Source of the DNA: a virus
Strand: one strand, 5' to 3'
Virus record (IMG/VR): IMGVR_UViG_3300029946_000007
DNA length: 35,941 nucleotides
Of this stretch, positions 2,654 through 35,941 are shown piece after piece; position 1 is the first letter of the stretch, and each line of letters begins with the position of its first letter. Both the position numbers and the translations under genes were made by a program. The notes beneath the pieces are model-generated. The model searched no databases. It had not been told where the DNA came from and worked only from the letters and a program-made list of their open reading frames with translations.

Positions 2654-3427
2654 ATGAAAAGAATTATGTTAATTTTGCTTGCAATCGCCCTCGTTTTCGC
2701 TGTGCCGTTCGGCATGGCGACTGCCCACGCCGAAGAAAGCGGGGGCGGAACAGAGGCACAGTCGGAACAGGAAAGCGTTATCGAATCGGAATCGGCGGAA
2801 GAATCCGAACAAGGTTCTGAAACGATAACACTAACAAAAGACGAGCTTAAACAGCTTATCGATGAAGCGTTAACGGAAAATCAGAAAAATATTATCTCGA
2901 TGTTATCCGAAAAAATATCGGGCTTAACGGGGCTTGATTTTACGTCGATATATTTAATAATAGCCGCTTGCGCCGTTGTTTTGCTTGGAATTATAATATT
3001 TATCGTTAAATACGTGCGTACAAAGACGCGTTTAAAAGCTACACAAGGAGCTTATGACCTTGAAAAGAAGGTAGCTGATAGCAATTCAAAACTTTTAGAA
3101 ACACTTTCCAACGACGGTATTGCAAAGATTGTGCTTGAAGCTATGAAAGAGGGCGGAGACGACCTCGTTATAAAGCTTGCAACGGCTTTAAAGCTTGACG
3201 AAACGACTATATCAAAACTTATAACGGCGCAGGAAATGGCGGAAGAGCGTGAAAAGAAAATCATGCTTGCGCTTAAAGCTATCGCAAAAGACGCGGGAAG
3301 AACGGAAGTTGTCAACACTCTTTCGGAAGTCCCCGAAAAGTCCTTTGTTGAGAAAATGACGCTTGAAAACGAAAAGCTTAAGCTTGCGCTCGGCGAGAAA
3401 AAAGTCGATGAGATTCTTTCTAAATGA
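2654..3427 (+). CDS. Secreted, membrane-anchored protein (257 aa): signal peptide, acidic Ser/Glu-rich segment, one TM helix, helical C-terminal domain
   Basis: AAGGAGA SD. N-terminal MKRIMLILLAIALVFAVPFGMATAHA is signal-peptide-like. Internal TM segment IYLIIAACAVVLLGIIIFIV. Confidence 0.6.
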   Translation: MKRIMLILLAIALVFAVPFGMATAHAEESGGGTEAQSEQESVIESESAEESEQGSETITLTKDELKQLIDEALTENQKNIISMLSEKISGLTGLDFTSIYLIIAACAVVLLGIIIFIVKYVRTKTRLKATQGAYDLEKKVADSNSKLLETLSNDGIAKIVLEAMKEGGDDLVIKLATALKLDETTISKLITAQEMAEEREKKIMLALKAIAKDAGRTEVVNTLSEVPEKSFVEKMTLENEKLKLALGEKKVDEILSK

Positions 3428-3435
3428 GGTGAAAG

Positions 3436-3900
3436 ATGAAAAGAAAATTAACTAATCAAGGTAAGGCGGCAGTATATGCCGCCGTTGCTTTGCTTTTATA
3501 TATCGTGCCGTTTATCATCGTCATGATTTATCATCGCGAAAAGATATTTAAAAGCCCAAAAGCGGCTTTATCGCTCTTTTCGATAACGGCGTTGTGCTTC
3601 GTCCTTTTCTTCCTTAAAAACCTTGTAAAAACGCTTTGCAAAATTTTAACGCCGATAGGATTCGGAAGCATGATAGCCTTGCTTGTCTCACTCGCTTTAA
3701 CGTCGTATTTGACCGATTTAACGCTTATTGCGACGGCAAGCGTTATCGGAAGCGTGCTTGCCTGGTATCCGTATCAGCTCGCCGCGACGTATTCACGCCA
3801 CAGCAAAGACGAGAACGGCGACGTTATCAAGGCGGCGGGAATGGACTTTAAAACGGCAAACGATAAGCTCTTCCAGATAAGCATAAGCGTAAAGGAGTAA
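3436..3900 (+). CDS. Polytopic membrane protein (154 aa, about 4 TM); holin-like by position only
   Basis: GAGGTGA SD. Four hydrophobic segments. Located at the distal end of the late operon. Confidence 0.45.
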   Translation: MKRKLTNQGKAAVYAAVALLLYIVPFIIVMIYHREKIFKSPKAALSLFSITALCFVLFFLKNLVKTLCKILTPIGFGSMIALLVSLALTSYLTDLTLIATASVIGSVLAWYPYQLAATYSRHSKDENGDVIKAAGMDFKTANDKLFQISISVKE

Positions 3901-3903
3901 TTT

Positions 3904-4812
3904 ATGACAGATTTTTTTTCGGCAAACGAAACCGCAAAGGACGTTAAAGAATCTAAAATCATGACGGCGGAAACGGCAAAAAAGAAAGCCGCAACCACGG
4001 CGGCGGGTTGGTTCGTCCGAAACTCAAACAACATCTTTACCGTTCTGCTTCTTCTTTCCGCAACGGTTATCGTTTTCGTCGCTTCCGTCGCGTTTGACAA
4101 TCCGTTTACGCGGCGAGAAATTACGGCGGCGATAGTCATGCTTGCCGCTTGCTCGTATCTGCTGTTTTTAAACGGCTACCGTTCAGGCGAAACGGAATAC
4201 CTTAAAACGAAAGACTTTATCGAGACGGAAGCAATGCAGAACGCCTTAATATCCGAAGTAAAAGATAAAAAGCTTTTATATCTGCTTACGGACTTTTGCG
4301 AGGACTATATCCGCGAAGAGTTAAAAGCAAAACGAAACGAGATTCTTTTGCCTGAAAACGTAAGCGATGAAGACTTTAACAAGTACATTGCAGGAGAGGA
4401 GACGAAACTTAACGAAAGTCAATTAAAAGCCTGTGAGACGGCACGAAAAATAAAGCCGATACGTTTAACGCGCGAGATGATATTGAAGTGTTCGGAGACG
4501 AACAGCCGCTCGCCGCTTAATTCTGAAACGAAAATAAAAGTGATGATAGGCACGCGCTTTTTATCAAAGCTTATATCGGTTTGCATTGCGTCCGTTTTCG
4601 CCTTTTCTTTGAGCTATCGAATAATAACTCAATTCTCGCTCGCAACAGTCTTGCAAGGCGTTGTGTGCGTCCTCTTTATGCTGTTCGGACTTGTAAGCGG
4701 AATATCTTTCGGATTCAAAATACAAGGCAAATATACGGCAATTAAAGCCGAAAAAAACACGCTCTTGAAACAGTTTTTAGAATGGAGCGAAAAGAAAACA
4801 ACAATTGAATAA
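3904..4812 (+). CDS. Membrane protein (302 aa) with N- and C-terminal TM hairpins flanking a soluble domain
   Basis: AAAGGAG SD. Hydrophobic segments near residues 40-100 and 215-275. Confidence 0.5.
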   Translation: MTDFFSANETAKDVKESKIMTAETAKKKAATTAAGWFVRNSNNIFTVLLLLSATVIVFVASVAFDNPFTRREITAAIVMLAACSYLLFLNGYRSGETEYLKTKDFIETEAMQNALISEVKDKKLLYLLTDFCEDYIREELKAKRNEILLPENVSDEDFNKYIAGEETKLNESQLKACETARKIKPIRLTREMILKCSETNSRSPLNSETKIKVMIGTRFLSKLISVCIASVFAFSLSYRIITQFSLATVLQGVVCVLFMLFGLVSGISFGFKIQGKYTAIKAEKNTLLKQFLEWSEKKTTIE

Positions 4813-4821
4813 AGGTGAATC

Positions 4822-5028
4822 ATGGAAAATTTTGACGTCGATACTTGTACGACGGAAGAACTGTTCAAACGCTGTCAGACGTTGCGTTTTTCTGCCCAAA
4901 ACGTCAGTTTAGCCGTCAATTTTTTTATACTGAAGACACCGCATAAAAGCCTTGCGGATAAATTCTGCATTGACGAAAAATCCGTCACTATGAGAAAGTG
5001 GCGGATGAAAAAAATATTAAATACATAA
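4822..5028 (+). CDS. Small sigma-70 region-4-like HTH protein (68 aa)
   Basis: AAAGGTGA SD. The C-terminal SLADKFCIDEKSVTMRKWRMKKIL resembles a region-4/LuxR-type HTH. Confidence 0.4.
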   Translation: MENFDVDTCTTEELFKRCQTLRFSAQNVSLAVNFFILKTPHKSLADKFCIDEKSVTMRKWRMKKILNT

Positions 5029-5030
5029 AA

Positions 5031-5072
5031 AGAGCCTGTGCGAGTAGCTACTTCGCGCAGGCTCTTTTTTTT
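5031..5072 (+). terminator. Rho-independent terminator ending the late/tail operon
   Basis: 13-bp stem agagcctgtgcga/tcgcgcaggctct (one G-U pair), 9-nt loop, followed by a T8 run. Confidence 0.85.
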
Positions 5073-5204: not shown

Positions 5205-5233
5205 TTCAAATCAGAGCCGTAAAGCCGTATAAT
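5205..5233 (+). promoter_or_regulatory. Sigma-A-type promoter of the accessory cassette (TTCAAA-17 nt-TATAAT)
   Basis: -35 TTCAAA at 5205-5210, 17-nt spacer, -10 TATAAT at 5228-5233, about 30 nt upstream of the SD and ATG at 5262. Confidence 0.5.
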
Positions 5234-5261
5234 TCCCTCAGAAAGAAAAGAGGTGATAAAT

Positions 5262-5603
5262 ATGTACGAAAACCCTTATTTCAACCCTTACGGCGGCATG
5301 CCGAGGCAATATCCACCCCAACAGCCTGCACAGCCGCAGACAAACATTATCTTCGTAAACGGCTTGGAAGACGTTAAAAGCCGTCTGCAACCTTGCCGTT
5401 CGCAAATGCTTTATAGCGACAACGACAAGAATCTTGTCTATTTAAAAGCGGTGGACGACACAGGGCATTTTACTGTCCAGGTCTTTGACCTTGTGGAGCA
5501 TAAAGAGGAGCAAGCCCCCGAGGTAAGCTACCTTACCCGAGCAGAGTTCGAAGAGTTTAAAAAGAGCTTAACGGCAAAAACGGAAGAGGGGGCGAACGTA
5601 TGA
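5262..5603 (+). CDS. Hypothetical protein (113 aa from the ATG at 5262) with a Pro/Gln/Tyr-rich N-terminus
   Basis: AAGAGGTGA SD 5 nt before the ATG at 5262. The track start at 5253 is a GTG lying inside the SD. The stop overlaps the next start (ATGA). Confidence 0.55.
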   Translation: MYENPYFNPYGGMPRQYPPQQPAQPQTNIIFVNGLEDVKSRLQPCRSQMLYSDNDKNLVYLKAVDDTGHFTVQVFDLVEHKEEQAPEVSYLTRAEFEEFKKSLTAKTEEGANV

Positions 5604-5872
5604 ATTTTTTAAAGCAAAGCATGGGCGGGGCAGTCAGACAAGGCGGAGCATTGCCGCCTCAGCTTATGGGCGCGATACAAGATATAAAGCGCATGCAAGC
5701 CGTGTGCGGCGGAAACATGCAAGCCATGATAAATCAAGTCGCGGCTCAACGCCCCGAAATCGGGCAAGCCTTAAAGGCGGCTCAGAACGGCAATGCTCGG
5801 CAAATAGTCGAGCAGTTATGCCAAAAGCAGGGCATAGACGTAAACGCCTTTATGCAGGCGTTACAAGCTTAA
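5600..5872 (+). CDS. Hypothetical small Gln/Ala-rich protein (90 aa)
   Basis: GAGGGGG SD. Translationally coupled to the upstream gene. Confidence 0.5.
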   Translation: MNFLKQSMGGAVRQGGALPPQLMGAIQDIKRMQAVCGGNMQAMINQVAAQRPEIGQALKAAQNGNARQIVEQLCQKQGIDVNAFMQALQA

Positions 5873-5932
5873 TATTAACGTTCGACGCGCGGCGAGCGAT
5901 AATATAAATTAAATTTTCAAGGAGAAACAATT

Positions 5933-6535
5933 ATGGAAGGAACAGGCATTACTCCGGTAATGGATATGAATCGCGGCTACGGCTACGGTGACGGTTGTGG
6001 ATTCGGCGGAAGCGGCTTATGGCTTTTCGCTATTCTCGCGCTCATGTGGGGCGGCGGCGGGCTTTTCGGAAACCGCTACGCACAGGACGGCAGAGCGGCT
6101 ACGGTTGAGGACTTAAATAACTCGGCGAACTTCACAAGACTTGAAAGCCAGGTTATGAATAACGGAAACAGAATCGAGCAGAAAGCGGACGCTGTTTACG
6201 GCGGAATCAGCAATCTCGGCTACGAGATGGCTCAGCAGTTCAGCGGTACGAGGGCGCAAATGGCGACATGTTGTTGCGAAACTCAAAGAGCGATTGACGG
6301 CGTAAATTATGCAAGCGCAATCAACACGGCGGCTTTAAAAGAAGCAGGCACGGCGAATACGCAGAAAATCCTCGACGCTATTTCGCAAAACAAAATTGAA
6401 GCTTTGCAGGCAAAAATTAGCCAGCTCGAACTTCAGCAGGCTGTCGCGGGCGTTGTAAGATATCCTACTCAGTACGCTTATAACGCCGGGCAGTCCCCGT
6501 TTTGCGGCGGCGCGTGCGGTTGCGGCGTAGCTTAA
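5933..6535 (+). CDS. Gly/Cys-rich membrane protein (200 aa): G-rich N-terminal TM segment, coiled coil, CCC and C-terminal CGGACGCG motifs
   Basis: AAGGAGA SD. The N-terminus GYGYGDGCGFGGSGLWLFAILALMWGGGGLFGN resembles YjcZ-type small sporulation proteins (from memory). Confidence 0.5.
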   Translation: MEGTGITPVMDMNRGYGYGDGCGFGGSGLWLFAILALMWGGGGLFGNRYAQDGRAATVEDLNNSANFTRLESQVMNNGNRIEQKADAVYGGISNLGYEMAQQFSGTRAQMATCCCETQRAIDGVNYASAINTAALKEAGTANTQKILDAISQNKIEALQAKISQLELQQAVAGVVRYPTQYAYNAGQSPFCGGACGCGVA

Positions 6536-6562
6536 AATCAAATTTCGCTTTAACAGCGCATT

Positions 6563-6602
6563 CCCCCTTGTCGAACAAGCTTTGCGCGGCAAGGGGGTTT
6601 TT
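6563..6602 (+). terminator. Internal (probably partial) intrinsic terminator or attenuator inside the cassette
   Basis: CCCCCTTG (6563-6570) pairs with CAAGGGGG (6590-6597), followed by T5. A competing inner hairpin CTTGT/ACAAG shares bases with the 5' arm. Confidence 0.5.
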
Positions 6603-6627
6603 AAATAAAAATCAAGGAGAAAATATT

Positions 6628-7065
6628 ATGACTTGCTTAAAAAATGCACATTATAAATCGTCCGCTCAGACGTATAACGGCACAGCGCAGGCATTAACGG
6701 CGGTTGCTTCGCCGCTTATTCTCGGCGCGGTTATTACCGATACGGGCATATCTTTAACGCCAAGCGCGACGGGTATAACCGTTAATAAAAGCGGCTTATA
6801 CCGTATTTCGGCAGACATAACGGTAACGTCTACGGCGGCGGGAATTATCAATCTTCAAGCGTATATCAACGGCACGGCACGCCCCGAAACACTTAGAGCG
6901 GTTACTGTTCCCGCGGCGGGAAATACCGTCGTACACCTTGAGACGGTAGCGTACATCTCCGCTTGTTGCGCGATGAATCCGATAATAACGATCGTCGGCA
7001 ATGCAGAAGGCGCGGCGGCTGGTAGCGTTTCGCTCATCGCTGTAAACGTCATAAAAGAGGCGTAA
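6628..7065 (+). CDS. BclA C-terminal-domain / C1q-TNF-like protein (145 aa), with no collagen repeats
   Basis: AAGGAGA SD and ATG at 6628; the track start at 6502 runs through the terminator. The pattern SGLYRISADITVTS...INLQAYINGT...SVSLIAVNVIKEA parallels the Bacillus BclA C-terminal domain (from memory). Confidence 0.55.
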   Translation: MTCLKNAHYKSSAQTYNGTAQALTAVASPLILGAVITDTGISLTPSATGITVNKSGLYRISADITVTSTAAGIINLQAYINGTARPETLRAVTVPAAGNTVVHLETVAYISACCAMNPIITIVGNAEGAAAGSVSLIAVNVIKEA

Positions 7066-7078
7066 AGGAGCGTGACGA

Positions 7079-7525
7079 ATGCACCACGAACTTATACACG
7101 ATATCATCAAACACGGCTCTGAAAGTCAAATGGAAGATCTTAAAGACGTTTTAATCGATTTAATCGACGACGTTAAAAAAGACGATAAACAGGAGTATAA
7201 AGCTATCGAGATAAGGCTTTATCATATCCTTTACGGCGATAAGCTTTGCGAGAAGTATGCGGAGGAGTGGGTTAAGAAGCTTGAGCGCAACGACGGCGGC
7301 ATAGGCGAGAAGTGGAATGTCGAACAAACGGAATCCGTTCGGCAGAACTACGCTCCGCAAGCCGACAAGTGGGAGTGGTACGCGGTTTTAAATTCGATTT
7401 ATTCCGATTATTACCACGAAAAATTCGATAATACAATATATTATCAGCTTGCGAAAGACTTCATCACCGACAAGGACGCTGTGCGCGATAAAGTACTCGC
7501 GTATTATATGTATATCGTCGGATAA
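7079..7525 (+). CDS. Hypothetical protein (148 aa), last gene of the cassette
   Basis: AAAGGAG SD, followed directly by a strong terminator. Confidence 0.5.
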   Translation: MHHELIHDIIKHGSESQMEDLKDVLIDLIDDVKKDDKQEYKAIEIRLYHILYGDKLCEKYAEEWVKKLERNDGGIGEKWNVEQTESVRQNYAPQADKWEWYAVLNSIYSDYYHEKFDNTIYYQLAKDFITDKDAVRDKVLAYYMYIVG

Positions 7526-7565
7526 AGAAAAAGCTACCGAGGTTTTCTCGGTAGCTGTCTTTTTT
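7526..7565. terminator. Bidirectional rho-independent terminator between convergent genes
   Basis: 10-bp perfect stem agctaccgag/ctcggtagct with a 5-nt loop. T-run downstream, A-run upstream. Confidence 0.85.
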
Positions 7566-7998
7566 AGTCGCGATAAGGTCTTTCTAACTTATCAACAACC
7601 GCGTAGGCGGTTATGTCGTTCGGCAGAATTTTCCCCGAAAGCCAATTTTCTAAAGTCCTTTGCGGAACTTTAAGATATTTTGCAAATTTAGGAACGGTTA
7701 AATTGTACTTGTTACGATAAGCGTTTAACATATCGTCAAAATCGAAATAAATCGGATCGTAACCGAAATGAAAATCGTTCGCCGCTTCTTCGTTATAATC
7801 GTCGCTGTCGTAATCGTCAAACGTCTTATAATTAACGTCGTTTGGAATCTCGTTTGAGCGAAGCTCATAATGAAAACGCGAATCTTTGCAGCTGTCTTTG
7901 GCATTTCGAGCGTACTCGATTGCTTCTTTTTTATCAAGGGTTCTAAGCTCTTCCCATTCATCATCGCCGCTTACAGAATATACGGTATATAATTTCAT
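7564..7998 (-). CDS. Two-domain protein (144 aa): N-terminal domain, acidic linker, C-terminal XRE/MqsA-like HTH
   Basis: AAAGGAGA SD. The C-terminal VPKFAKYLKVPQRTLENWLSGKILPNDITAYAVVDKL is HTH-like. Confidence 0.5.
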   Translation of the reverse strand: MKLYTVYSVSGDDEWEELRTLDKKEAIEYARNAKDSCKDSRFHYELRSNEIPNDVNYKTFDDYDSDDYNEEAANDFHFGYDPIYFDFDDMLNAYRNKYNLTVPKFAKYLKVPQRTLENWLSGKILPNDITAYAVVDKLERPYRD

Positions 7999-8044
7999 AA
8001 TAAATCTCCTTTGCGGGGATTAGCCGCCCCGCTCGGCTTATTTT

Positions 8045-8371
8045 TTAAGCGACAAATAAATTTCTGTCGCAGCTCTTTTTCATTTTTGCGCCGAAGCTTT
8101 CGTACCACTTGTTTTCTTTTTCGTTTATAAGCTCTTGAGCTTCATCGATTTTGTTTGAAAAAACATTATCAAGGATTTTCAAAACTTCAGATTCTCTTTC
8201 TTCAACAAGACGATTTGAATCTGTGCCGTAATAATCGGCAAGGTCATACAAAAAGCTCATAAACCACTTTTCAACCTTTAATTCGCCGCTTTTTGCTTTA
8301 TAATAAATAACGCCGATTTGTTTTTTTGTAAATTCTGTAGCTTTATTAAACCCGTATTCTTTCATTTTCAT
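8045..8371 (-). CDS. Hypothetical protein (106-108 aa), first gene of the att-adjacent module
   Basis: AAGGAGAA SD. The second ATG (8365) has better SD spacing than the first (8371). Sits downstream of a consensus promoter. Confidence 0.5.
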   Translation of the reverse strand: MKMKEYGFNKATEFTKKQIGVIYYKAKSGELKVEKWFMSFLYDLADYYGTDSNRLVEERESEVLKILDNVFSNKIDEAQELINEKENKWYESFGAKMKKSCDRNLFVA

Positions 8372-8744: not shown

Positions 8745-9977
8745 TTAAAATTTAAAGGTTTTTAAGAATTCTTGCTCGCGTTCTTTATATATATCGCCAT
8801 AAGTATCAAGAGTGTATTTTACCGAATGCCCGAGGCGGTGAGCAACGATATAAGCGTCCTCGGCTTTGCTTGCTCCGGACGAAAAGATAATCGTTGCATG
8901 TGTGTGCCGGAATTGGTGAGGAGTTATTTTTTTTACCCCCGCAAGATTGATATATTTAGCCATGTCGCGGCGCAACGTTTCGAACGGTATCGGTCGCGTT
9001 TTAAAAAACATAAAATCGTTCGACTTTAAATTAAACGTTTCGATATACTCCTTTAAAAGCGGCTCGAGGGCTTCGGGGATTGATTCGGTTAATGCCGAAT
9101 GTGTTTTCCGATCGGTAACGGCATAGGTCTTTCCTTTGCCTCGTTCTTCGGGCGTTACCTTATTTGTAACGCTTTCGTCGATAAGCACGGTATGGTTTTC
9201 AAAGTCGATTTTCTTTACCTTTAAAGCCGTCGCCTCGCCTTTTCTGTTTGCCATATAGAAAAGATAGTTGAAGAAGACGTAATATATATAATGCTTGCGA
9301 ACGGCGAAATTCTCGCGCCAATCTCCGACGGCGGCGGATTTTGCCGATTCGTAACACTCTTTCACGGTGGCGTTAAATTTCTGCCAATCTTCAATCGTCC
9401 ACGCTTCCTTTTTTACAGTTGAGCGCGGAAATTTTTTTATCCGTTGATAGTCTTTGTAAGGTTGGTCAAAGTTATGTTCAAGTGAGCCGTATTTTAAGAC
9501 ACGACCTAAATTCGCCCACGTTTTAAACGTGGTTGACATTGCAAAATTTTGAGCAGATAGATAATCGCGAAACTTTAGTAAGTCGTTTTTTGATAATTCC
9601 GTCATTCTGATTTTGCGCAAACTTTGAAAACGGTTGTTAAAAATATTGACCGCCTCAAGATATGAAGACGTTTTGCATTCCGATTTGATTTGACGAAGTA
9701 AATCGTCGCATACTTCGCCGAATGTAATTCCGATAGGATTCTCTCGCCGCTTTATGCCGCTCTCGTATTCGAGATAGGCGCGTTCGGCTTCCTTTTTAGA
9801 GTTATAAGCTCCGAGCTTTTTTTGCTTGTATTCACTGTATTCAAGAGCGCGAAAGCGAACGTACCACTTGTTAACGTTTTTAAGCTCTGTGCGGCATTTA
9901 GGGCATAATACGCGCTTTTCGGTTAAGTATTTTGCGCATTTCGGGCAATATCTTTCGTAGTGTAAATAACTTGCCAA
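8745..9977 (-). CDS. int: Tyrosine recombinase / phage integrase (410 aa) with an N-terminal Cys4 zinc-ribbon-like motif
   Basis: C-terminal HQFRHTHAT...VAHRLGHSVKYTLDTYGDIY (R, HxxR, Y catalytic pattern). N-terminal CPKC...CPKC. TTG start 9 nt after a GGAGA SD. Confidence 0.9.
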   Translation of the reverse strand: MASYLHYERYCPKCAKYLTEKRVLCPKCRTELKNVNKWYVRFRALEYSEYKQKKLGAYNSKKEAERAYLEYESGIKRRENPIGITFGEVCDDLLRQIKSECKTSSYLEAVNIFNNRFQSLRKIRMTELSKNDLLKFRDYLSAQNFAMSTTFKTWANLGRVLKYGSLEHNFDQPYKDYQRIKKFPRSTVKKEAWTIEDWQKFNATVKECYESAKSAAVGDWRENFAVRKHYIYYVFFNYLFYMANRKGEATALKVKKIDFENHTVLIDESVTNKVTPEERGKGKTYAVTDRKTHSALTESIPEALEPLLKEYIETFNLKSNDFMFFKTRPIPFETLRRDMAKYINLAGVKKITPHQFRHTHATIIFSSGASKAEDAYIVAHRLGHSVKYTLDTYGDIYKEREQEFLKTFKF

Positions 9978-10799: not shown

Positions 10800-11192
10800 T
10801 TACGCTTTTAATATTGTTCTGAGCGATTCTTGAAGAACGGCGGAAAAGTTTATTTTTCTCTCTTCCGCTTCTTTATTCATCCAATAAGGAATAGTGCAGT
10901 TTTTGCGAACCATTTTAGAGTTTTCCTTATCTCTATACGCGTCAAAGTCCACATCGACAAGAGCAGTCAATTCATCGCCTTTACATTCAAGTTTAAGATT
11001 TTTTGCTTTTGGTATTTTTTGTCCGTCGTCTTGCATAGAAATACCGACAAGCCCGATTGCGTCTTTTGCCATAAAAAGCGCGTCTTCAATGCTTTTCCCC
11101 TCGGTATTTATATCAAAATCGGGGACATATACAACATAGTATTTGCTTTTCCCTTTCGGTGGATAAATAATAATAGGATAAACGTCTTTCAT
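10800..11192 (-). CDS. hicB: HicB-family antitoxin (130 aa)
   Basis: AAAGGAGA SD. It immediately follows hicA. N-terminal HicB-like fold pattern and a C-terminal RHH-like tail (KINFSAVLQESL). Confidence 0.7.
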   Translation of the reverse strand: MKDVYPIIIYPPKGKSKYYVVYVPDFDINTEGKSIEDALFMAKDAIGLVGISMQDDGQKIPKAKNLKLECKGDELTALVDVDFDAYRDKENSKMVRKNCTIPYWMNKEAEERKINFSAVLQESLRTILKA

Positions 11193-11195
11193 ATT

Positions 11196-11375
11196 TTAAT
11201 CTCCTTTTAAATTATTTCTTTTTATAATCGCTTTTGCAAGCATTTCGTCAATCTCGCCGTGACGTGGAATCGGTTCTTTTTTGCCGCCTTTTTTATAAAT
11301 GGAATGATTCCCGCCTTCGCGGTAAAGTTCCCAACCGTTTTTCTCAAATAGTTTTATTAAATCACGTCTTTTCAT
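11196..11375 (-). CDS. hicA: HicA-family mRNA interferase toxin (59 aa)
   Basis: MKRRDLIKLFEKNGWELYREGGNHSIYKKGGKKEPIPRHGEIDEMLAKAIIK is a typical HicA/YcfA pattern. AGAGG SD. The longer track ORF (to 11450) would begin upstream of the promoter. Confidence 0.8.
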   Translation of the reverse strand: MKRRDLIKLFEKNGWELYREGGNHSIYKKGGKKEPIPRHGEIDEMLAKAIIKRNNLKGD

Positions 11376-11397
11376 CTGCAACCTCTTTACACTATAT

Positions 11398-11426
11398 ATT
11401 ATACGCATTAGTGCGTATTTTGTCAA
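11398..11426 (-). promoter_or_regulatory. Consensus promoter of hicAB (TTGACA-17-TATAAT) with an 18-bp palindromic operator
   Basis: On the minus strand: TTGACA (11426-11421) and TATAAT (11403-11398). The palindrome ATACGCA-N4-TGCGTAT at 11401-11418 overlaps the spacer. Confidence 0.75.
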
Positions 11427-11451
11427 GTATTTTGCGGCAATATTTTGCATT

Positions 11452-11926: not shown

Positions 11927-12020
11927 GTAAAATAAAACGCCGATTTAATTTCCAAAATCAGCCGACGATTTATCGAAAAAATAAAACGCCGACTTGATTT
12001 CCTTAAAGGTGGTCGACGTT
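11927..12020 (-). terminator. Tandem (duplicated) intrinsic terminators for minus-strand transcription
   Basis: T1: 9-bp stem 12020-12012 / 11993-11985, then UUUUAUUUUUU. T2: 8-bp stem 11962-11955 / 11946-11939, then UUUUAUUUU. Each stem has one G-U pair on the minus strand that becomes a C/A mismatch on the plus strand. Confidence 0.7.
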
Positions 12021-12266
12021 CTATTCCTGAATTTGTTTACCTTAGCGATTTGCAGTTTGCGAAAAGCCCGTTTACGGCAATAGTTTAAACCTGGCACACA
12101 CAGGCGTAAACGCGCCATTCATCGTCGCCTCGTCGGCGGTGTTTTTAAGGAGTTTTCATCTCCTACGGTAGAAATTAATCGCAAACACGGCGGAAATTAT
12201 TTCCTTTGCATAAAGCAGAGAAAAATACCTTTACCGCTTCTATGTATTGTTGCGCAACTTTCGCGG

Positions 12267-12353
12267 TTACAGTTCCGCGAACCCCGATGACGCAAGCGCA
12301 CGTCGCCCTAAGGAACAGCGGGGTAACAGGAGAAGTTTCTTAATGAGCTTCAT
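12267..12353 (-). CDS. 28-codon micro-ORF near the 5' end of the candidate RNA (MKLIKKLLLLPRCSLGRRALASSGFAEL)
   Basis: GAGGTGA SD (12365-12359) 5 nt before the ATG at 12353. In frame with the 69-aa track ORF, whose upstream part lies before the predicted transcription start. Confidence 0.3.
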   Translation of the reverse strand: MKLIKKLLLLPRCSLGRRALASSGFAEL

Positions 12354-13085: not shown

Positions 13086-13502
13086 ATGATAAAAGTGACT
13101 GAAAAGGATATACAGGACTTTGTAGCGTATGGCGAAGAGCGCGGAAAGGAAAAGACCGTGCAGACGGTTTTTAAAATACTTTCCCCGCTTTTAACGAAAG
13201 AACAGGTTAATGACCTTGCTCAATTTATGGTGAACGCTTTTTGTTGCAAGCACCTTGATAAAGCTTTATACGGCGATATGACGGTTGAAATGGCGAATTT
13301 TATCGCTAACGCGGGCAACGATTATACTTCGAAAGCTTGCTTATTAACCGAGCTTTTAAAGCTTAACGAATCATATGGAAATCGTATCAATTTTCAAGTA
13401 AGAAAAATAGACAAAACACCTGCAAACGTTGTTAAATTCCTTAAAAGAAACGAAATAAAATCGACGATACAAGAGCTAAAACAGAAATTGAAATCGTTAT
13501 AA
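13086..13502 (+). CDS. Hypothetical early protein (138 aa)
   Basis: AAGGAGAGG SD. Confidence 0.5.
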   Translation: MIKVTEKDIQDFVAYGEERGKEKTVQTVFKILSPLLTKEQVNDLAQFMVNAFCCKHLDKALYGDMTVEMANFIANAGNDYTSKACLLTELLKLNESYGNRINFQVRKIDKTPANVVKFLKRNEIKSTIQELKQKLKSL

Positions 13503-13836
13503 TTTCGAAAGCTGAATGTTTCTTTTTTTCTTCGGACTGTTCCGCTTTTGACAAGGCTTCTGCTTCGCGGCATTCCTTTTCCACATAGTACGCCGCAAGC
13601 CCTGCGGGAGTGATGAAATAATGCGTCGGGAACGTTAGCATAGTTATATTTGTTTTGCCTACCTCGAAGTCCTTATCTTCAAGGGCGTGGCTCCAAATAT
13701 AACCTTTAAAAAGCAAATAGTTAAGTATTTCGTTGTAATGTTCGATGCCGTGTGTTATAAAGATTGTTTCCACAGCTCCCTCTTCACGGCTGAGCTGTTC
13801 TAAGATTTCAAATTCGATGTTACAAAGTTTATCCAT
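13441..13836 (-). CDS. Tail-anchored membrane protein (131 aa) with a winged-helix-like N-terminal domain
   Basis: GAGGT SD. C-terminal TM segment FEIITISISVLALVSSILFRFF. Its 3' end overlaps the convergent gene 13086-13502 by 62 nt. Confidence 0.5.
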   Translation of the reverse strand: MDKLCNIEFEILEQLSREEGAVETIFITHGIEHYNEILNYLLFKGYIWSHALEDKDFEVGKTNITMLTFPTHYFITPAGLAAYYVEKECREAEALSKAEQSEEKKKHSAFEIITISISVLALVSSILFRFF

Positions 13837-13860
13837 AAATTACCTCAAGGAGAATGAAAG

Positions 13861-14052
13861 ATGAGTAAGTTAAAAGAGCGGCGAGAGGAATTGCGTTTAA
13901 CGCAAAAAGAAGTCGCCGAAAAAATAGGCATTGCTGAAAGTGCCTATCAGAGATATGAGCATACAAAAAGAGAGCCATGTGTTAGCACGGCTTTAAAGAT
14001 TGCTAAGGCGTTAAATACAACGGTAGAGGAGCTTTATTCTTCATCGATATAA
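13861..14052 (+). CDS. XRE-family HTH protein A (63 aa)
   Basis: AAGGAGA SD. Sequence LTQKEVAEKIGIAESAYQRYEHTKREP...IAKALNTTVEELY. Confidence 0.75.
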   Translation: MSKLKERREELRLTQKEVAEKIGIAESAYQRYEHTKREPCVSTALKIAKALNTTVEELYSSSI

Positions 14053-14237
14053 AGTTCTTCAACGGTTGTTTCTAAGGCTTTGGCAATGCGGACAGCCATA
14101 AAAGCAAGTGGAATTGTGTCGCCGCGTTCATATCTTTGATAGGCACTTTCTGCTATATTAGCGCGGTTGGCAACTTGTTTTTGAGTGAGTTTTAACTCTT
14201 GTCGGCGTTCTTTAAGCTTGTTATTCGGTTGGTTCAT
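14034..14237 (-). CDS. XRE-family HTH protein B (67 aa), a paralogue of A
   Basis: Sequence LTQKQVANRANIAESAYQRYERGDTIP...IAKALETTVEELY. Converges on A, with a 19-nt 3' overlap. Confidence 0.7.
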   Translation of the reverse strand: MNQPNNKLKERRQELKLTQKQVANRANIAESAYQRYERGDTIPLAFMAVRIAKALETTVEELYIDEE

Positions 14238-14430
14238 CTTCTAAAGGGAATACCTCTTCCACGGTGGCGTTTAACGCTTTAGCAATACGCAAAGCAATAT
14301 AAACGCTTGGAATTCTTGTTCCTTTTTCGTAACGATAAACAAGAGTATAAGTAGTTAAATTTGCCATTTCGGCAAGCTGTGGCTGTGTTATATTGAGTTT
14401 TTTTCGATATTCTGAAATTTTATTTGACAT
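14221..14430 (-). CDS. XRE-family HTH protein C (69 aa), a paralogue of A and B
   Basis: GAGGG SD. Sequence ITQPQLAEMANLTTYTLVYRYEKGTRIP...IAKALNATVEEVF. Overlaps B by 17 nt in the same operon. Confidence 0.75.
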   Translation of the reverse strand: MSNKISEYRKKLNITQPQLAEMANLTTYTLVYRYEKGTRIPSVYIALRIAKALNATVEEVFPLEDEPTE

Positions 14431-14445
14431 ATGCCCTCAAAACGC

Positions 14446-14474
14446 TTGACTATACCTATTGGTTATGTTAAAAT
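14446..14474 (+). promoter_or_regulatory. Strong promoter (TTGACT-17-TAAAAT) overlapping the divergent promoter of gene C
   Basis: TTGACT at 14446-14451 and TAAAAT at 14469-14474. A CTATACCT...AGGTATAG inverted repeat spans the promoter (5' arm 14450-14457 overlapping the -35, 3' arm 14494-14501 downstream of the -10), and the palindrome GTCAAATTTGAC lies just before the SD. Confidence 0.65.
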
Positions 14475-14580
14475 ACAATCGAACATGACCAAAAGGTATA
14501 GAAGCATAAATAAAAATTTAGTAAATCCGATTATACAACAAATCGGTTGCGATTGTCAAATTTGACAAAAGGAGCGAAGT

Positions 14581-14808
14581 ATGGTTGCAAAAACCCCGAA
14601 AGAGGTCTTAGAAAAGGAGTTTATCAGAACCGCGGATATTCGCGTGCTTATAGGTTGTAGCGAAGAAAATGCCTGCAAGGTCATGAAATCGGTTAAAGCC
14701 TTCCAGGACAGCACAGGCGGCTTACTTCGCGGGGTCTGCCATATAAACGACCTTAAAGCATGGATGAAGCATAATAGAGAAAAAGGCAAGGTGCGCGGTA
14801 ATGTCTGA
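14581..14808 (+). CDS. Small DNA-binding protein (75 aa), Tn916-Xis/MerR-like HTH; possible excisionase
   Basis: AAAGGAG SD. The pattern FIRTADIRVLIGCSEENACKVMKSVKA...GVCHINDLKAWM resembles excisionase-type HTH proteins (from memory). Confidence 0.35.
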   Translation: MVAKTPKEVLEKEFIRTADIRVLIGCSEENACKVMKSVKAFQDSTGGLLRGVCHINDLKAWMKHNREKGKVRGNV

Positions 14809-15022
14809 GAGCTTACGAGATTTACGCAAGGCAAGCGAAAAAACGCTTGCAGAGGTTGCAAAGGCTTTACATGTGACTATTCAAACGGTTTGCCGCTACG
14901 AGAACGGAAAGAGACGTTTAAATATTGACCAAGTTATACCGCTTGCTCGCCTTTACCATGTTTCCGCCGAAGATATTATCGCGGCGCAAGCTATCTCAGA
15001 GGCTGTTGGTAAGTCCGAGTAA
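14801..15022 (+). CDS. XRE-family HTH protein D (73 aa)
   Basis: Sequence TLAEVAKALHVTIQTVCRYENGKRRL. Overlaps the upstream gene by 8 nt. Confidence 0.7.
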   Translation: MSESLRDLRKASEKTLAEVAKALHVTIQTVCRYENGKRRLNIDQVIPLARLYHVSAEDIIAAQAISEAVGKSE

Positions 15023-15202
15023 ATAATCGGCTGAAACATCATAAAGCTTACAAAAGGTTACAAGAGTTTCAAGCGACGGCTCACGCGATCCGTTTTCATA
15101 ACGAAGCACGGTCTGAATTGTAATATTGAGTTTTTCGGCAACGTCTTTAAGCTTTAAACCTGCTTGTACGCGGCTTTCTTTTAGTCTTTGTGCTATAACC
15201 AT
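14996..15202 (-). CDS. XRE-family repressor E (68 aa from the ATG at 15202), CI-like by position
   Basis: GAGGT SD 8 nt before the ATG at 15202. Sequence LKDVAEKLNITIQTVLRYENGSREP. Divergent from a three-operator promoter. Its 3' end overlaps D by 27 nt. Confidence 0.75.
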   Translation of the reverse strand: MVIAQRLKESRVQAGLKLKDVAEKLNITIQTVLRYENGSREPSLETLVTFCKLYDVSADYLLGLTNSL

Positions 15203-15252
15203 AAATTTGACCTCAAAAAGTATATAAACCAAAACGGTAAAAAAAATTATAC

Positions 15253-15321
15253 ACCAAATTGGTTATAAATGCTTGACATATAACCAAATTGGTTATATAA
15301 TACATATATCCAAATTGGTTA
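15253..15321. promoter_or_regulatory. Three copies of a (T)AACCAAATTGGTTA-type palindromic operator
   Basis: ACCAAATTGGT at 15253-15263. TAACCAAATTGGTTA at 15281-15295, inside the promoter spacer. TCCAAATTGGTTA at 15309-15321. Confidence 0.8.
15273..15301 (+). promoter_or_regulatory. Perfect consensus promoter (TTGACA-17-TATAAT) of the replication/early operon
   Basis: TTGACA at 15273-15278, a 17-nt spacer that consists largely of the central operator, TATAAT at 15296-15301. Confidence 0.8.
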
Positions 15322-15460
15322 CATAAACGACCACAAATCAATTTTTAAATGAACAGATTCCTTAAAATGTTAAACGAGGAAACGAAGAACTTAACCAAAA
15401 CAGAGCAAAAAGAAGTTTTAAAGCGACTTTTTGAAATATATCCGAATTTAAAAAGGAACG

Positions 15461-15688
15461 ATGACAATGAACATGCCCTATCTTATAAGAACAGACCCCA
15501 AAGACCCACGCGGAGATAGAATTCAAATCGTAACATTCGGCGAGCCTATGCCGATAGCCGAAGATAATTCTTGTTTATGCGATAGGTGCAAAAAATCGGA
15601 AGGGTGTAAAATGAAACCTTTAACAGCACCTTATACGAGTTGTGTTTCATATAAATACAACCGCACTCGTTCGGATAAAAGCGAGTAA
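15461..15688 (+). CDS. Hypothetical Cys-containing protein (75 aa)
   Basis: AAAGGAA SD-like sequence before the ATG at 15461. Confidence 0.45.
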   Translation: MTMNMPYLIRTDPKDPRGDRIQIVTFGEPMPIAEDNSCLCDRCKKSEGCKMKPLTAPYTSCVSYKYNRTRSDKSE

Positions 15689-15701
15689 AGGAGAAAAGGA
15701 A

Positions 15702-15842
15702 ATGAAAGACGATTTTTTAGAGTACGGAAACAACCAACCACGTCCGACGTTTAAAGGCTTGTTAAAGCAATTATGCGTTTGGGGAATCCTGGCGGCGATA
15801 TTCGTCGTCGGCATGATATTAAACGGGAGCGTGAAGTTATGA
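15702..15842 (+). CDS. Small membrane protein (46 aa)
   Basis: AAGGAGA SD before the ATG at 15702. TM segment LCVWGILAAIFVVGMIL. Confidence 0.45.
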   Translation: MKDDFLEYGNNQPRPTFKGLLKQLCVWGILAAIFVVGMILNGSVKL

Positions 15843-34199: not shown

Positions 34200-35941
34200 A
34201 TGAGGATAACGGTTAACAAAAACGGTCAAGTCGTGGATATAGCCGATTCAACGCTTGTTGCAAATTCCACTTATGGCAACGCAAGCTTTATCGTCGCTTT
34301 TGACGAAAGCCTTACGCCAAGCGAAATATCGAATTTTGCGACGTGTACGTATTCGGTAATACGAGCGGACGGCGTGCAAATCGACAACATGTATATGGCG
34401 TTGAAAGGCGAGCAGTTCGAAGCCGAATTAAAACCCGATTACGGTATACTTGACGTAAACGGAAGTATTCAGATTTCTTTTCAAATAAAAACAAAAGATA
34501 ACGGCAAGGTATTTGCCACAATAGCCGTAGCAGCGTTCGTTCAGACTAATATCGGTAAGCTTACCAAAGAAGAGGCAGACGATGTTGAAACAAGGCTTAT
34601 ATCGCGTTATATCGAGCCAATGGCGGCAAATATCAACGAAAAAGTTGATAAAATCGACAGTGACAACGTAGGGGACAAGGCTTATATAAAAGGCGAGACG
34701 GGCAACACCGAATCGCCCGATTATGTCTATATCGAGCGAAACGGCGAAAAGAAAAGCAGAGCGATTCTCGGAGCAACACAAGACGGCGATTATATTATTC
34801 CCAACGCCGAAAAACCCGCAAATCCCGTCAATCTTGGGCAGTTGCTCGAGCAGTTAAAGCTTTATATACAAGCCATTGAAAAAGGCTCTGCGGGCGGCGT
34901 TGCGCCTTTAAATGAAAATACTCTTATCGACGAGAAGTATATTCCGTCTGATATCATAAACGCGGCTGGTAACGTTATAAACAAGGTCGATAAAATCCCG
35001 CAAGGACCTTACGACAGAGTATATATTGCTCAAGGCTTGTACGATAGCTCCCCCGATAAATTCAGGTCGGTCAACTCAAAAGGTAAACCATACGCATATT
35101 CATTGCTTGGAGCCGACGCGGCGGGCGTGTACCGTGTCCCCGAAGCTACGGACGAGTTAAGCCCCGTCAATCTTAAACAGCTTTTAGCTAAGCTCGAGAG
35201 TTATATTTTAGCAACGGAAAAAGGCACTGCGGGCGGTGTGGCTATACTTGACGGCTCGGGAAAAGTTCCCGCTTCGCAGTTGCCGGGCTTTGTTGACGAC
35301 GTTCTCGATTCTTACGTTCGCCCGGGTGCAACACTTTATTCCGCCGCATGGTTATCGCTTGAGAAAAACGGAGCGGCGTTAACGCCCGAAGAGGGTAAGC
35401 TTTACATCGTAAAAGAGGGCGAGTACGCAAATCATCAATACCGTTGGACAGGCTCTCAGTACGGCGAAATAGCAAGCTCTCTTGCGCTCGGGGAAGTCAC
35501 AGGCACGGCATACGACGGCGGCAAAGGTAAAGCCCTCAAAGACGAGTTAACAGCCGAATCAAAGCGCATAGACGATAACGAAGCGGATATCGCCGCACTG
35601 CGCACGGACGTAGATACGGGCGAAACGTATATCGGAGCCGTCGAACCTGATAATAAACGCTATAAAACGTGGATTGATACTACGGAAGAGCTGTTCTTTT
35701 CAAAATCGATATTAAAAAGCGGCGATTATATCGTCCTCACTGAAGAACAAGACGCAGACGGCACGCCGATTATAAAGATTTCCGTAAAGCCGCCTTATAA
35801 GCGGCATAATGTTAAGATATCGTTTGCAAGTAAAATAAACGAATCCGACACGGTTACTTTTTCAACAGTATTAAGCGCAAGCGTGATATCCACAAGAGCG
35901 ACATTCGTCGGAATGACTTGGAACGAGCTTTGCGACGAACT
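34200..35941 (+). CDS. Tail fibre protein, 5' part. The ORF is open to the window end and continues at 1-316 (about 652 aa in total).
   Basis: AAGGAG SD then ATG at 34200, with no stop before the window end. Same frame as the 41-316 ORF once the 99-bp overlap is removed. Hand translation shows two copies of a fibre motif: EKGSAGGVAPLNENTLIDEKYIP and EKGTAGGVAILDGSGKVPASQLPGFVDDV. Confidence 0.8.
   Translation, partial: MRITVNKNGQVVDIADSTLVANSTYGNASFIVAFDESLTPSEISNFATCTYSVIRADGVQIDNMYMALKGEQFEAELKPDYGILDVNGSIQISFQIKTKDNGKVFATIAVAAFVQTNIGKLTKEEADDVETRLISRYIEPMAANINEKVDKIDSDNVGDKAYIKGETGNTESPDYVYIERNGEKKSRAILGATQDGDYIIPNAEKPANPVNLGQLLEQLKLYIQAIEKGSAGGVAPLNENTLIDEKYIPSDIINAAGNVINKVDKIPQGPYDRVYIAQGLYDSSPDKFRSVNSKGKPYAYSLLGADAAGVYRVPEATDELSPVNLKQLLAKLESYILATEKGTAGGVAILDGSGKVPASQLPGFVDDVLDSYVRPGATLYSAAWLSLEKNGAALTPEEGKLYIVKEGEYANHQYRWTGSQYGEIASSLALGEVTGTAYDGGKGKALKDELTAESKRIDDNEADIAALRTDVDTGETYIGAVEPDNKRYKTWIDTTEELFFSKSILKSGDYIVLTEEQDADGTPIIKISVKPPYKRHNVKISFASKINESDTVTFSTVLSASVISTRATFVGMTWNELCDE
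35843..35941. repeat. 99-bp exact terminal direct repeat, copy 2
   Basis: Identical to bases 1-99. Confidence 0.95.

Follow-up and report, generated by a model that had tools for sequence, protein, structure and literature searches.

A conserved gene cassette in phages of gut anaerobes encodes a predicted membrane protein and a stand-alone BclA-like jelly-roll

We analyzed a five-gene cassette in the IMG/VR virus record IMGVR_UViG_3300029946_000007, a 35,941-nt stretch of DNA referred to below as the window. The window, a circular contig whose ends overlap exactly over 99 nt (positions 1 to 99 = 35843 to 35941), has 35,842 unique bases and is a complete temperate phage genome of 35.8 kb. The original prediction for the region from 5205 to 7565, made from the sequence alone, described a separate transcription unit of five genes. 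All five open reading frames (ORFs) are present on the plus strand, each with a Shine-Dalgarno-like sequence upstream: P1 (5262 to 5603; 113 aa), P2 (5600 to 5872; 90 aa), P3 (5933 to 6535; 200 aa), P4 (6628 to 7065; 145 aa), and P5 (7079 to 7525; 148 aa). Just upstream of the cassette, an associated ORF on the same strand (4822 to 5028) encodes a small helix-turn-helix (HTH) protein of 68 aa.

Terminators separate the cassette from its neighbors. An intrinsic terminator on the plus strand (5027 to 5069; ΔG of −28.4 kcal/mol, z of −7.3), consisting of an 18-pair stem followed by a T-run, closes the late operon upstream of the cassette. Downstream, a bidirectional intrinsic terminator (7532 to 7556; z of −3.9 on the plus strand and −5.6 on the minus strand) is common to the cassette and to a convergent HTH gene (7564 to 7998, minus strand). 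A further terminator-like hairpin lies on the plus strand in the gap between P3 and P4 (6563 to 6597, followed by U5 to position 6602; ΔG of −22.6 kcal/mol, z of −3.4). All three hairpins beat shuffled controls, and all three are kept in five of five related contigs (92 to 99.6% identity), so both the insulated unit and its internal hairpin stand as first described. The predicted promoter fared less evenly: the sigma-70-like sequence TTCAAA-17-TATAAT (5205 to 5233, plus strand; 10 of 12 matches) is present and both hexamers are kept in the same five relatives, but the match alone is not significant, because seven promoter-like sites were seen in the 4-kb region where 6.6 were expected by chance. 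The G+C content of P1 to P4 is 48.5 to 53%, compared with 42.5% for P5 and 42.4% for the genome, a shift that may derive in part from the Gly/Ala-rich composition of the proteins. Of 44 representative loci, 22 likewise have a terminator-like hairpin before the cassette, as counted in a permissive scan without a null.

The signature protein of the cassette is P3 (phrog_16490, E = 7e-11), which is also its slowest-evolving member. P3 has a Gly-rich hydrophobic N-terminus, a CCC motif, and a C-terminal CGGACGCGVA. Hydrophobic segments were scored over Kyte-Doolittle 19-mers with a threshold of 1.6, and by this test P3 carries a transmembrane (TM)-like helix at about residues 27 to 45 that is conserved across the family (median score of 1.62). 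The CCC motif, correctly noted in the original prediction, is near-invariant (41 of 46 P3 representatives), and the Cys-rich tail has a median of 3 Cys among its final 15 residues. An AlphaFold2 (AF2) model contains a short helix (residues 29 to 39) and one continuous helix of ~110 residues (61 to 172); since its pLDDT of 49.5 was too low for a fold search, only the secondary structure was used. P3 is thus predicted from its sequence to be a single-pass membrane protein. Its N-terminus had been likened to YjcZ-type sporulation peptides, but searches of Pfam and NCBIfam at E ≤ 1 gave no match to YjcZ or other sporulation families. We rejected that assignment, as the likeness is compositional only and a 200-aa protein with a 110-residue helix compares poorly with peptides of tens of residues. 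A P3 profile searched against the Protein Data Bank (PDB) returned coiled-coil noise only, and P3 had no match among plasmids.

Relatives of P3 fall into 2,519 clusters at 90% identity, nearly all of them unnamed and on phage-sized contigs, and an exhaustive HMMER search yielded 1,079 clusters at 50% identity, including 465 at E ≤ 1e-10. The best 150 matches among 1.84 billion representatives are 73 to 387 aa long, mostly ~180 to 240 aa, with almost all below 290 aa and one at 387 aa. Many P3 tails, such as that of the window (6506 to 6535), finish with Cys-Gly-x-(Ile/Val/Ala), as in CGVA, CGNI, CGQI, and CGLV, and are superficially like a CaaX box. In three of the eight loci without P4, the P3 tail is instead Cys-free and Thr-rich.

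P4 is a stand-alone C1q/TNF-like jelly-roll similar to the BclA C-terminal domain (CTD) and to ExsFA. An AF2 model built from nine homologues (pLDDT of 87.9, pTM of 0.80) was searched against the PDB with Foldseek, which placed the BclA CTD on top (3tyj, 1wck, and 2z5w; E = 1e-8 to 6e-8, TM scores of 0.72 to 0.77), followed by ExsFA and F-BclA and then by TNF ligands (4-1BBL and EDA) and phage fiber or needle knobs, including PRD1 P5, the Sf6 and HS1 needle knobs, and the A-1(L) fiber. Against BFVD, the best matches were stand-alone gut siphovirus proteins of 135 to 150 aa, one of them named "BclA protein," and the next were C-terminal knobs of collagen-repeat tail fibers. A P4-family profile matched BclA chains (E = 0.0025) and the C1q domain of cerebellin (E = 1e-5) in the PDB, where a single-sequence search had found nothing meaningful; a tblastn search of the window P4 against GenBank phages returned no match. 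Given the agreement of the AF2 model, Foldseek, and the family profile, the assignment of a BclA-CTD/C1q-like fold in the original prediction was right, as was its remark that the collagen stalk is missing. P4 has no collagen GXX repeats, no coiled-coil stalk, and no signal peptide; the BclA targeting motif was not formally searched for. Its match to Pfam BclA_C (PF18573; E = 1.7e-4, 21.9 bits) lies under the 38-bit gathering cutoff, and with no collagen stalk either, P4 is on sequence grounds outside the BclA family. Judged by its model, it folds and works like BclA-CTD/ExsFA and phage fiber knobs. The protein opens with a conserved peptide, LKNxHYKS, and the jelly-roll begins at about residue 11. 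Family members are likewise stand-alone (126 to 191 aa as longest ORFs) and fall into three sequence subtypes that are swapped between loci. Their median hydropathy is 1.41; 22% exceed 1.6, with the peak near residue 94 and not at the N-terminus.

The remaining products appear soluble, and all P1, P2, and P5 proteins scanned stay below the hydrophobicity threshold of 1.6. P1 (phrog_21718, E = 5e-11) begins with MYENPYFNPYGGMPRQYPPQQPAQPQ, the Pro/Gln/Tyr-rich N-terminus singled out in the original prediction, which we describe as a Tyr/Asn/Pro/Gln-rich low-complexity segment; it is followed by a conserved domain of ~60 aa and a C-terminal amphipathic helix. Searched against the PDB, the P1 profile found no relative, only coiled-coil noise. 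P2 is small, Gln/Ala/Met-rich, and probably helical, with no significant match in Pfam or PHROGs. P5, previously taken to be of no known type, belongs to Pfam DUF7841 (PF25223; E = 3.7e-15) and is probably helical as well. It occupies a variable last slot: the 148-aa protein in the same slot of another locus (L001) has no detectable relation to the window P5. Because none of the soluble cassette proteins has a hydrophobic N-terminal signal-like segment in the Kyte-Doolittle scan, surface display is left without an explanation.

The 68-aa HTH protein is a candidate regulator of the cassette. It had no significant Pfam match, and it corresponds to the C-terminal HTH part of ~200-aa proteins, with a multi-hydrophobic N-terminus, that lie upstream of other cassettes. 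A locally built family model for it, HTHw, was found directly upstream of P1 in 33 of the 98 sources described below. Upstream ORFs of other cassette loci include matches to Sigma70_r4, GerE, and HTH_23, and a BLASTP comparison of the window HTH protein with that of the locus L002 found no relation between the two.

We asked how consistently these genes occur together by compiling a census of 98 sources chosen by the presence of P3 (80 IMG/VR loci, 11 genome loci, and several contigs, with 45 P3 clusters at 75% identity), using family hidden Markov models (HMMs) built locally. P1 was found in 96 of the 98 sources, P2 in 93, always between P1 and P3, and a P4-family jelly-roll protein after P3 in 90. 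The last slot is filled by DUF7841 (P5a) in 50 sources and by one of two unrelated alternatives in others (P5b in 19 and P5c in 8). Gene order is invariant, [HTH]-P1-P2-P3-P4-[62-aa protein]-P5, where brackets mark the HTH and 62-aa proteins. The genes thus travel together in a fixed order, which answers the co-occurrence check suggested with the original prediction; its statement that none of the products is a standard phage function does not hold in the sense intended, since in phages the genes are nothing unusual and make up a module of high conservation. The cassette is present in all five close relatives of the window phage, and a search for cassette-free relatives returned only the same four cassette-bearing contigs. 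A prophage copy is present on a 99.9-kb contig of a Mogibacterium metagenome-assembled genome. Searched as DNA, the cassette had no match among GenBank phages.

The cassette always runs in the same direction as the late genes and is usually last in the late block, with large tail proteins upstream and integrases, serine recombinases, or HTH_3 repressors downstream. Its position nonetheless varies, as it does for morons. It lies between the minor capsid and scaffold genes in L001 and directly after holin_4_1 and lysozyme genes in L002, and the contexts in Clostridium perfringens phages and in the crAss-like phage cr116_1 differ again. Several neighbors recur. An ~130-aa protein with a GDC...H motif, cysteine-peptidase-like, is found upstream in 19 of the 98 sources, in Firmicutes-phage loci, and small HExxH-motif proteins flank P3 in cr116_1 (L101, 4141 to 4488 and 6721 to 7116) and in L102 (7434 to 7898), that is, in the crAss-like and Bacteroides phage versions; one of these is annotated as a PolyVal metallopeptidase. 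Such neighbors may point to proteolytic processing of cassette proteins. In two loci (L005, 5041 to 5770; L006, 4446 to 5112), a 48-aa ORF lies directly upstream of an AgrB-like membrane protein (PF04647), and AgrB-like matches were found in 7 of 115 upstream ORFs scanned; the two genes may be a phage agrBD-type quorum-sensing pair.

The hosts of cassette-bearing phages are diverse. In tblastn searches of GenBank phages, P1-P2-P3 were found in the cultured C. perfringens phages CPD1, vB_CpeS-17DYC, XP41-N3, and HMD-PC1, and PMQ04 and CPQ4 were also matched. These C. perfringens phages encode an amidase-holin pair ~4 kb before the cassette, which follows an antirepressor gene and sits among small genes leading to the replication module and outside any lysogeny module. 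CPD1 (L099) alone has a 207-aa HNH-like ORF between P2 and P3 (6212 to 6835). P3 homologues of full length that retain the hydrophobic segment, CCC motif, and Cys tail are present in many crAss-like phages (Crassvirales); in cr116_1, the P3 gene lies between terS and the scaffold and major capsid protein genes, ~1.2 kb after a holin and an L,D-carboxypeptidase. Bacteroides phage C3_41T2LP, plaqued on Bacteroides uniformis, encodes such a homologue as well and, three genes further, a DUF7841 protein, while predicted Methanomassiliicoccales viruses carry P3 alone. Comparison by hhalign of P1 and P4 family profiles with equivalent-slot proteins of the crAss, Bacteroides, and C. perfringens phages gave no homology, and what the window cassette is shown to have in common with these groups is P3 for the crAss-like phages and P3 and DUF7841 for the B. 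uniformis phage. One of these predicted Methanomassiliicoccales viruses, Caudoviricetes sp. vir215 (L103, 3152 to 4186 and 4878 to 5759), has P3 without P1, P2, or P4; this P3 has two CCC motifs and no Cys-rich tail and lies just after a tail protein and a reverse transcriptase of the type found in diversity-generating retroelements.

Close relatives of the C. perfringens phages differ in whether they carry the cassette. A 9.7-kb segment of 17DYC aligns with phiCP39-O, phiCP13O, phiCP26F, phiCP34O, and phiCP9O at 93 to 95% identity over ~60% of its length. In a pairwise comparison of phiCP39-O and 17DYC, the flanks are 87 to 98% identical, and phiCP39-O has nothing equivalent to positions 5443 to 8347 of the 17DYC locus (L098), a stretch containing the antirepressor, P1, P2, P3, the P4-slot protein, the 62-aa protein, and the start of the last gene. 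The other four phages are not among the P3 tblastn matches listed. The 78-aa gp44 of phiCP39-O (L104, 6069 to 6305) matches the 3′ portion of the final cassette gene in 17DYC (L098, 8347 to 8621), and because homology resumes inside that gene, gp44 looks like its remnant. These alignments suggest a loss of the cassette from the phiCP39-O lineage, whether by deletion or by replacement. Since phiCP39-O, and probably its four relatives, lack the cassette and yet are cultured isolates, neither virion formation nor lysis depends on it in that lineage, judged by this comparison.

The cassette is therefore a real unit and an accessory module in phages of gut anaerobes. The conserved P3 anchor, co-inheritance of the genes, insulation beside a putative regulator, base composition, mobility, and dispensability together favor a mobile module of the moron type. 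Morons and superinfection-exclusion membrane proteins are known from many phages, for example, lactococcal Sie2009 and HK97 gp15. Like the cassette, they are insulated promoter-gene-terminator units with deviant G+C content and variable presence, encode a membrane protein, and often lie beside the integrase. The cassette has strong terminators of its own and a plausible and conserved promoter, P1 to P4 deviate in base composition, and presence varies among close relatives in the C. perfringens phage lineage.

The account we prefer, though we hold it tentatively, is that this mobile accessory module builds a membrane-anchored stalk-and-knob complex in infected cells. In an infected or lysogenic cell, its products would gather at the cytoplasmic membrane, where P3 would insert by its single N-terminal TM helix and project an ~110-residue helical stalk with Cys clusters. 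P4 would form a C1q/TNF-like oligomer, with a trimer expected by analogy with its fold, and P1, P2, and the interchangeable P5 would act as soluble partners or assembly factors. The unit would be driven by its own promoter, with the small HTH protein next to it as the probable regulator, and the internal terminator may set the amount of P1-P3 relative to P4-P5. Eukaryotic TNF-family ligands are type II membrane proteins with a stalk and a TNF-homology trimer. P3 and P4 would together resemble such a ligand, with its type II anchor, stalk, and jelly-roll head, split over two genes where the eukaryotic protein is one polypeptide; the likeness is at the level of the fold, and contact between P3 and P4 is hypothetical. 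As for its role, an accessory function at the level of the envelope is the most plausible, such as exclusion of superinfecting phages or another membrane modification. Of the features seen, only the membrane anchor and the autonomous promoter are consistent with superinfection exclusion, a hypothetical role. In a bolder form, which we regard as possible but doubtful, P1-P2-P3-P4 would represent a new class of phage machinery, a membrane-anchored TNF-ligand-like complex with a host-envelope-independent function in the infected cell; its P3 core would be common to phages of Clostridia and Bacteroides (including crAss-like phages) and viruses of gut methanogenic archaea, and its function might be a new mode of superinfection exclusion, lysis control, or membrane remodeling.

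Several points weigh against a membrane-anchored complex of this kind. The AF2 model of P3 is of low confidence, and the charge bias around the P3 helix is weak in a positive-inside analysis, too weak to assign topology. A disulfide between the Cys tail of P3 and an N-terminal Cys of P4 was considered as the junction and rejected: the Cys contents of the two proteins do not co-vary across 90 loci, so such a junction finds no support. A C1q/TNF-like head with no signal peptide cannot reach the cell surface before lysis, and a cytoplasmic role for it would be unusual. Known superinfection-exclusion functions are usually single genes, and morons are usually single small genes, whereas the cassette comprises four to six co-inherited genes across very different phage groups. 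P1 to P5 and the HTH protein had no match among PADLOC defense profiles (E ≤ 0.01). Finally, co-orientation with late genes and the occasional position among head genes also fit a virion-associated role.

Such a role is the next account to consider. The cassette might encode an optional virion decoration or accessory fiber, in which P3 would form a coiled-coil shaft and P4 a distal knob binding a host receptor or gut glycan, with P5 as an exchangeable fiber chaperone and P1 and P2 as attachment or assembly factors; it would be dispensable in the way of phi29 head fibers and lambda side tail fibers. The fold of P4 matches fiber-end knobs (collagen-repeat tail fibers, PRD1 P5, Sf6/HS1, and A-1(L)), often in the same tail-fiber neighborhood, since the cassette usually follows tail-fiber genes and in L001 and cr116_1 lies among head genes. 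Soluble components with no N-terminal signal-like segment, swapping of P4 subtypes, a P5 slot that varies as fiber chaperones do, and a host range broad enough for a virion function independent of the host envelope all fit, and GenBank labels P3 homologues of crAss and Bacteroides phages "viral fiber" or "spike." However, known knobs of this kind are fused to their shaft and have no membrane anchor, whereas P4 is a separate 145-aa protein following a membrane-anchored helical P3. Every P3, including the crAss and archaeal-virus versions, keeps the TM-like segment, unlike known external fibers, and no large fusion proteins appear among the best 150 P3 matches. The cassette also has its own promoter, terminators, and regulator, and its place in C. 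perfringens phages is past the lysis genes, in a group of small nonstructural genes. Literature on DUF7841, phage-encoded BclA, the named C. perfringens phages, the crAss "viral fiber" labels, and C3_41T2LP yielded no functional or virion-proteome data. On balance, we think a virion fiber unlikely.

A role in lysis, which the original prediction offered as its alternative, is in our estimate less likely again. The cassette could be a lysis-associated module in which P3 is a holin-like or lysis-timing protein, with a topology like that of T4 holin T or PBSX XhlA, and the soluble proteins are regulators or accessory factors, like XepA and YomS of Bacillus prophage lytic cassettes; in phages with no recognizable endolysin, such as the window phage, it might even be the main lesion-forming system. 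It lies in the canonical lysis slot, between the tail genes and the integrase, and the hydrophobic segment of P3 would supply the one or more TM domains expected of a holin. Among window ORFs of at least 80 aa, none encodes a Pfam endolysin or holin domain. The 62-aa protein found in many loci (s62) consists of an N-terminal hydrophobic helix and a coiled coil and presumably resembles BhlA-type proteins, and P3 occurs alone in a virus of the wall-less Methanomassiliicoccales.

Endolysin-type domains were rare around the cassette. Our family scans of flanking ORFs drew on the 25 top families per scan, so the counts are lower bounds and some endolysins were possibly missed, which weakens their rarity as an argument for lysis. 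Among 45 representatives, the three upstream ORFs included at least two Amidase_3, one Phage_lysozyme, one Phage_lysozyme2, and one Peptidase_M15_4/VanY domain, and the three downstream ORFs at least one Phage_lysozyme and two PG_binding_1 domains; among ORFs of 100 to 480 aa within 10 kb on either side in ~14 loci, there were at least one holin and one M15 peptidase. Where lysis genes are present, they often adjoin the cassette, as in L002 and cr116_1, or lie ~4 kb away, as in the C. perfringens phages; no endolysin was detected near the cassette in most of the other loci scanned.

Besides morons and superinfection-exclusion genes, the nearest precedent in concept, from Firmicutes phages, is XepA/YomS of PBSX and SPbeta, an oligomeric beta-sandwich with no signal peptide that lies beside the bitopic coiled-coil XhlA at the end of the late operon and whose role is still unclear (PMC6834076). 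The likeness is one of concept: XepA is a C2-like pentamer and not C1q-like, and in PBSX these genes always come with a holin and an amidase, unlike the cassette. Within the cassette itself, searches of Pfam, PHROGs, and NCBIfam with P1 to P5 returned neither a holin nor a lysin family, no member has an enzymatic domain, and lysis would not explain why four to six proteins, including a jelly-roll head, are inherited together. The cassette co-occurs with complete holin and endolysin pairs, and close relatives that lack it are cultured, sequenced phages: judged by cassette-free phiCP39-O, which shares ~60% of the 17DYC region at ~93% identity, it is not required for lysis. We conclude that the cassette is probably not the main lysis system, and lysis does not stand as its general role.

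The reading favored by the original prediction, a lysogenic-conversion cassette whose products enter the host spore coat or exosporium or the cell surface, is in our view very improbable. It drew on real features. The best structural matches of P4 are the exosporium proteins BclA CTD, ExsFA, and F-BclA, and signal peptides are missing from coat and exosporium proteins too, which often have a high content of Cys, Tyr, Pro, and Gln. C. perfringens, one of the cultured hosts, is a spore former, and the window unit adjoins an integrase and has its own promoter. The Bacillus exosporium trimers BclA CTD and ExsFA/BxpB share the jelly-roll of P4 (TM scores of 0.72 to 0.77, E = 1e-7 to 1e-8), and ExsFA is, like P4, a stand-alone domain of ~145 aa with a short N-terminal extension. 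They are, however, only 16 to 19% identical to P4, which is phage-encoded and has partner genes in phages of nonsporulating hosts, and the same fold is common in phage fibers. P4 falls under the Pfam BclA_C threshold and has no collagen stalk, and P3 has no YjcZ match. P3 occurs with DUF7841 in a phage of nonsporulating B. uniformis, and P3 is also present in many crAss-like phages and predicted archaeal viruses; Mogibacterium, which carries a prophage copy, is also a nonsporulating genus. Because the module is found in phages of spore formers, non-spore formers, Gram-negative bacteria, and probably archaea, spore decoration is not its general function, and because several of the phages were isolated on plates and carry the cassette outside any lysogeny module, as in C. 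perfringens, neither is lysogenic conversion. Equally remote is a set of virion-internal ejection or pilot proteins, with P3 packaged as a kind of mini tape-measure or needle that enters the recipient membrane at DNA delivery and P4 acting like the Sf6 needle knob: the pairing of a TM-like segment and a long helix is reminiscent of ejection proteins that insert into membranes, the P4 fold search matched the Sf6 and HS1 needle knobs, crAss-like phages are podoviruses, and the window has no obvious tape-measure gene, but the cassette is dispensable in C. perfringens siphoviruses with a tape-measure protein of their own, has its own promoter and terminators, and shows no sequence similarity to any ejection protein.

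Other features of the window genome give the cassette its setting. The late operon ends just before the cassette with three membrane proteins on the plus strand: a 257-aa protein with a signal peptide, an acidic region, a TM segment, and a coiled coil (2654 to 3427), a 154-aa protein with several hydrophobic segments (3436 to 3900), and a 302-aa protein with about four hydrophobic segments and a weak PADLOC "homing endonuclease" match (3904 to 4812). With no other family matches, the three are candidates for holin-like or exclusion functions. The window proteins include a phrog_422 major head protein, a scaffold protein, and a Phage_min_cap2 protein, with no tape-measure-like protein recognized among them. 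A 652-aa tail-fiber ORF (34200 to 316) crosses the contig junction and for that reason was missed in the ORF listing. Downstream of the cassette are the integrase (8745 to 9977, minus strand) and, adjoining the repressor region, a HicB antitoxin (10800 to 11192, minus strand) with a HicA toxin (11196 to 11450, minus strand). A full-length FuFi-1 RNA (Rfam RF02986, 77.7 bits) lies in the early or lysogeny region at 11980 to 12300 on the minus strand, and a stretch of ~2.2 kb (13500 to 15770) has only short minus-strand ORFs (131, 101, and 83 aa) with no family match and may be a noncoding or small-gene region.

For the cassette itself, the cultured C. perfringens phages provide a ready experimental system, with cassette-positive members (17DYC, CPD1, XP41-N3, HMD-PC1, and PMQ04) and cassette-free counterparts (phiCP39-O and probably phiCP13O, phiCP26F, phiCP34O, and phiCP9O) whose flanks are ~93 to 95% identical over ~60% of the region. 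Although its members are annotated only as hypothetical proteins, as a DUF, or under the misleading names "spike" and "BclA protein," the cassette is a widespread and already catalogued gut-phage module, represented by two PHROGs and one DUF. A BclA-like fold in this setting is no sign of spore biology, and recognizing this prevents a tempting misannotation. With a reach that extends to crAss-like phages, the module is among the more widespread uncharacterized gene sets of gut phages.

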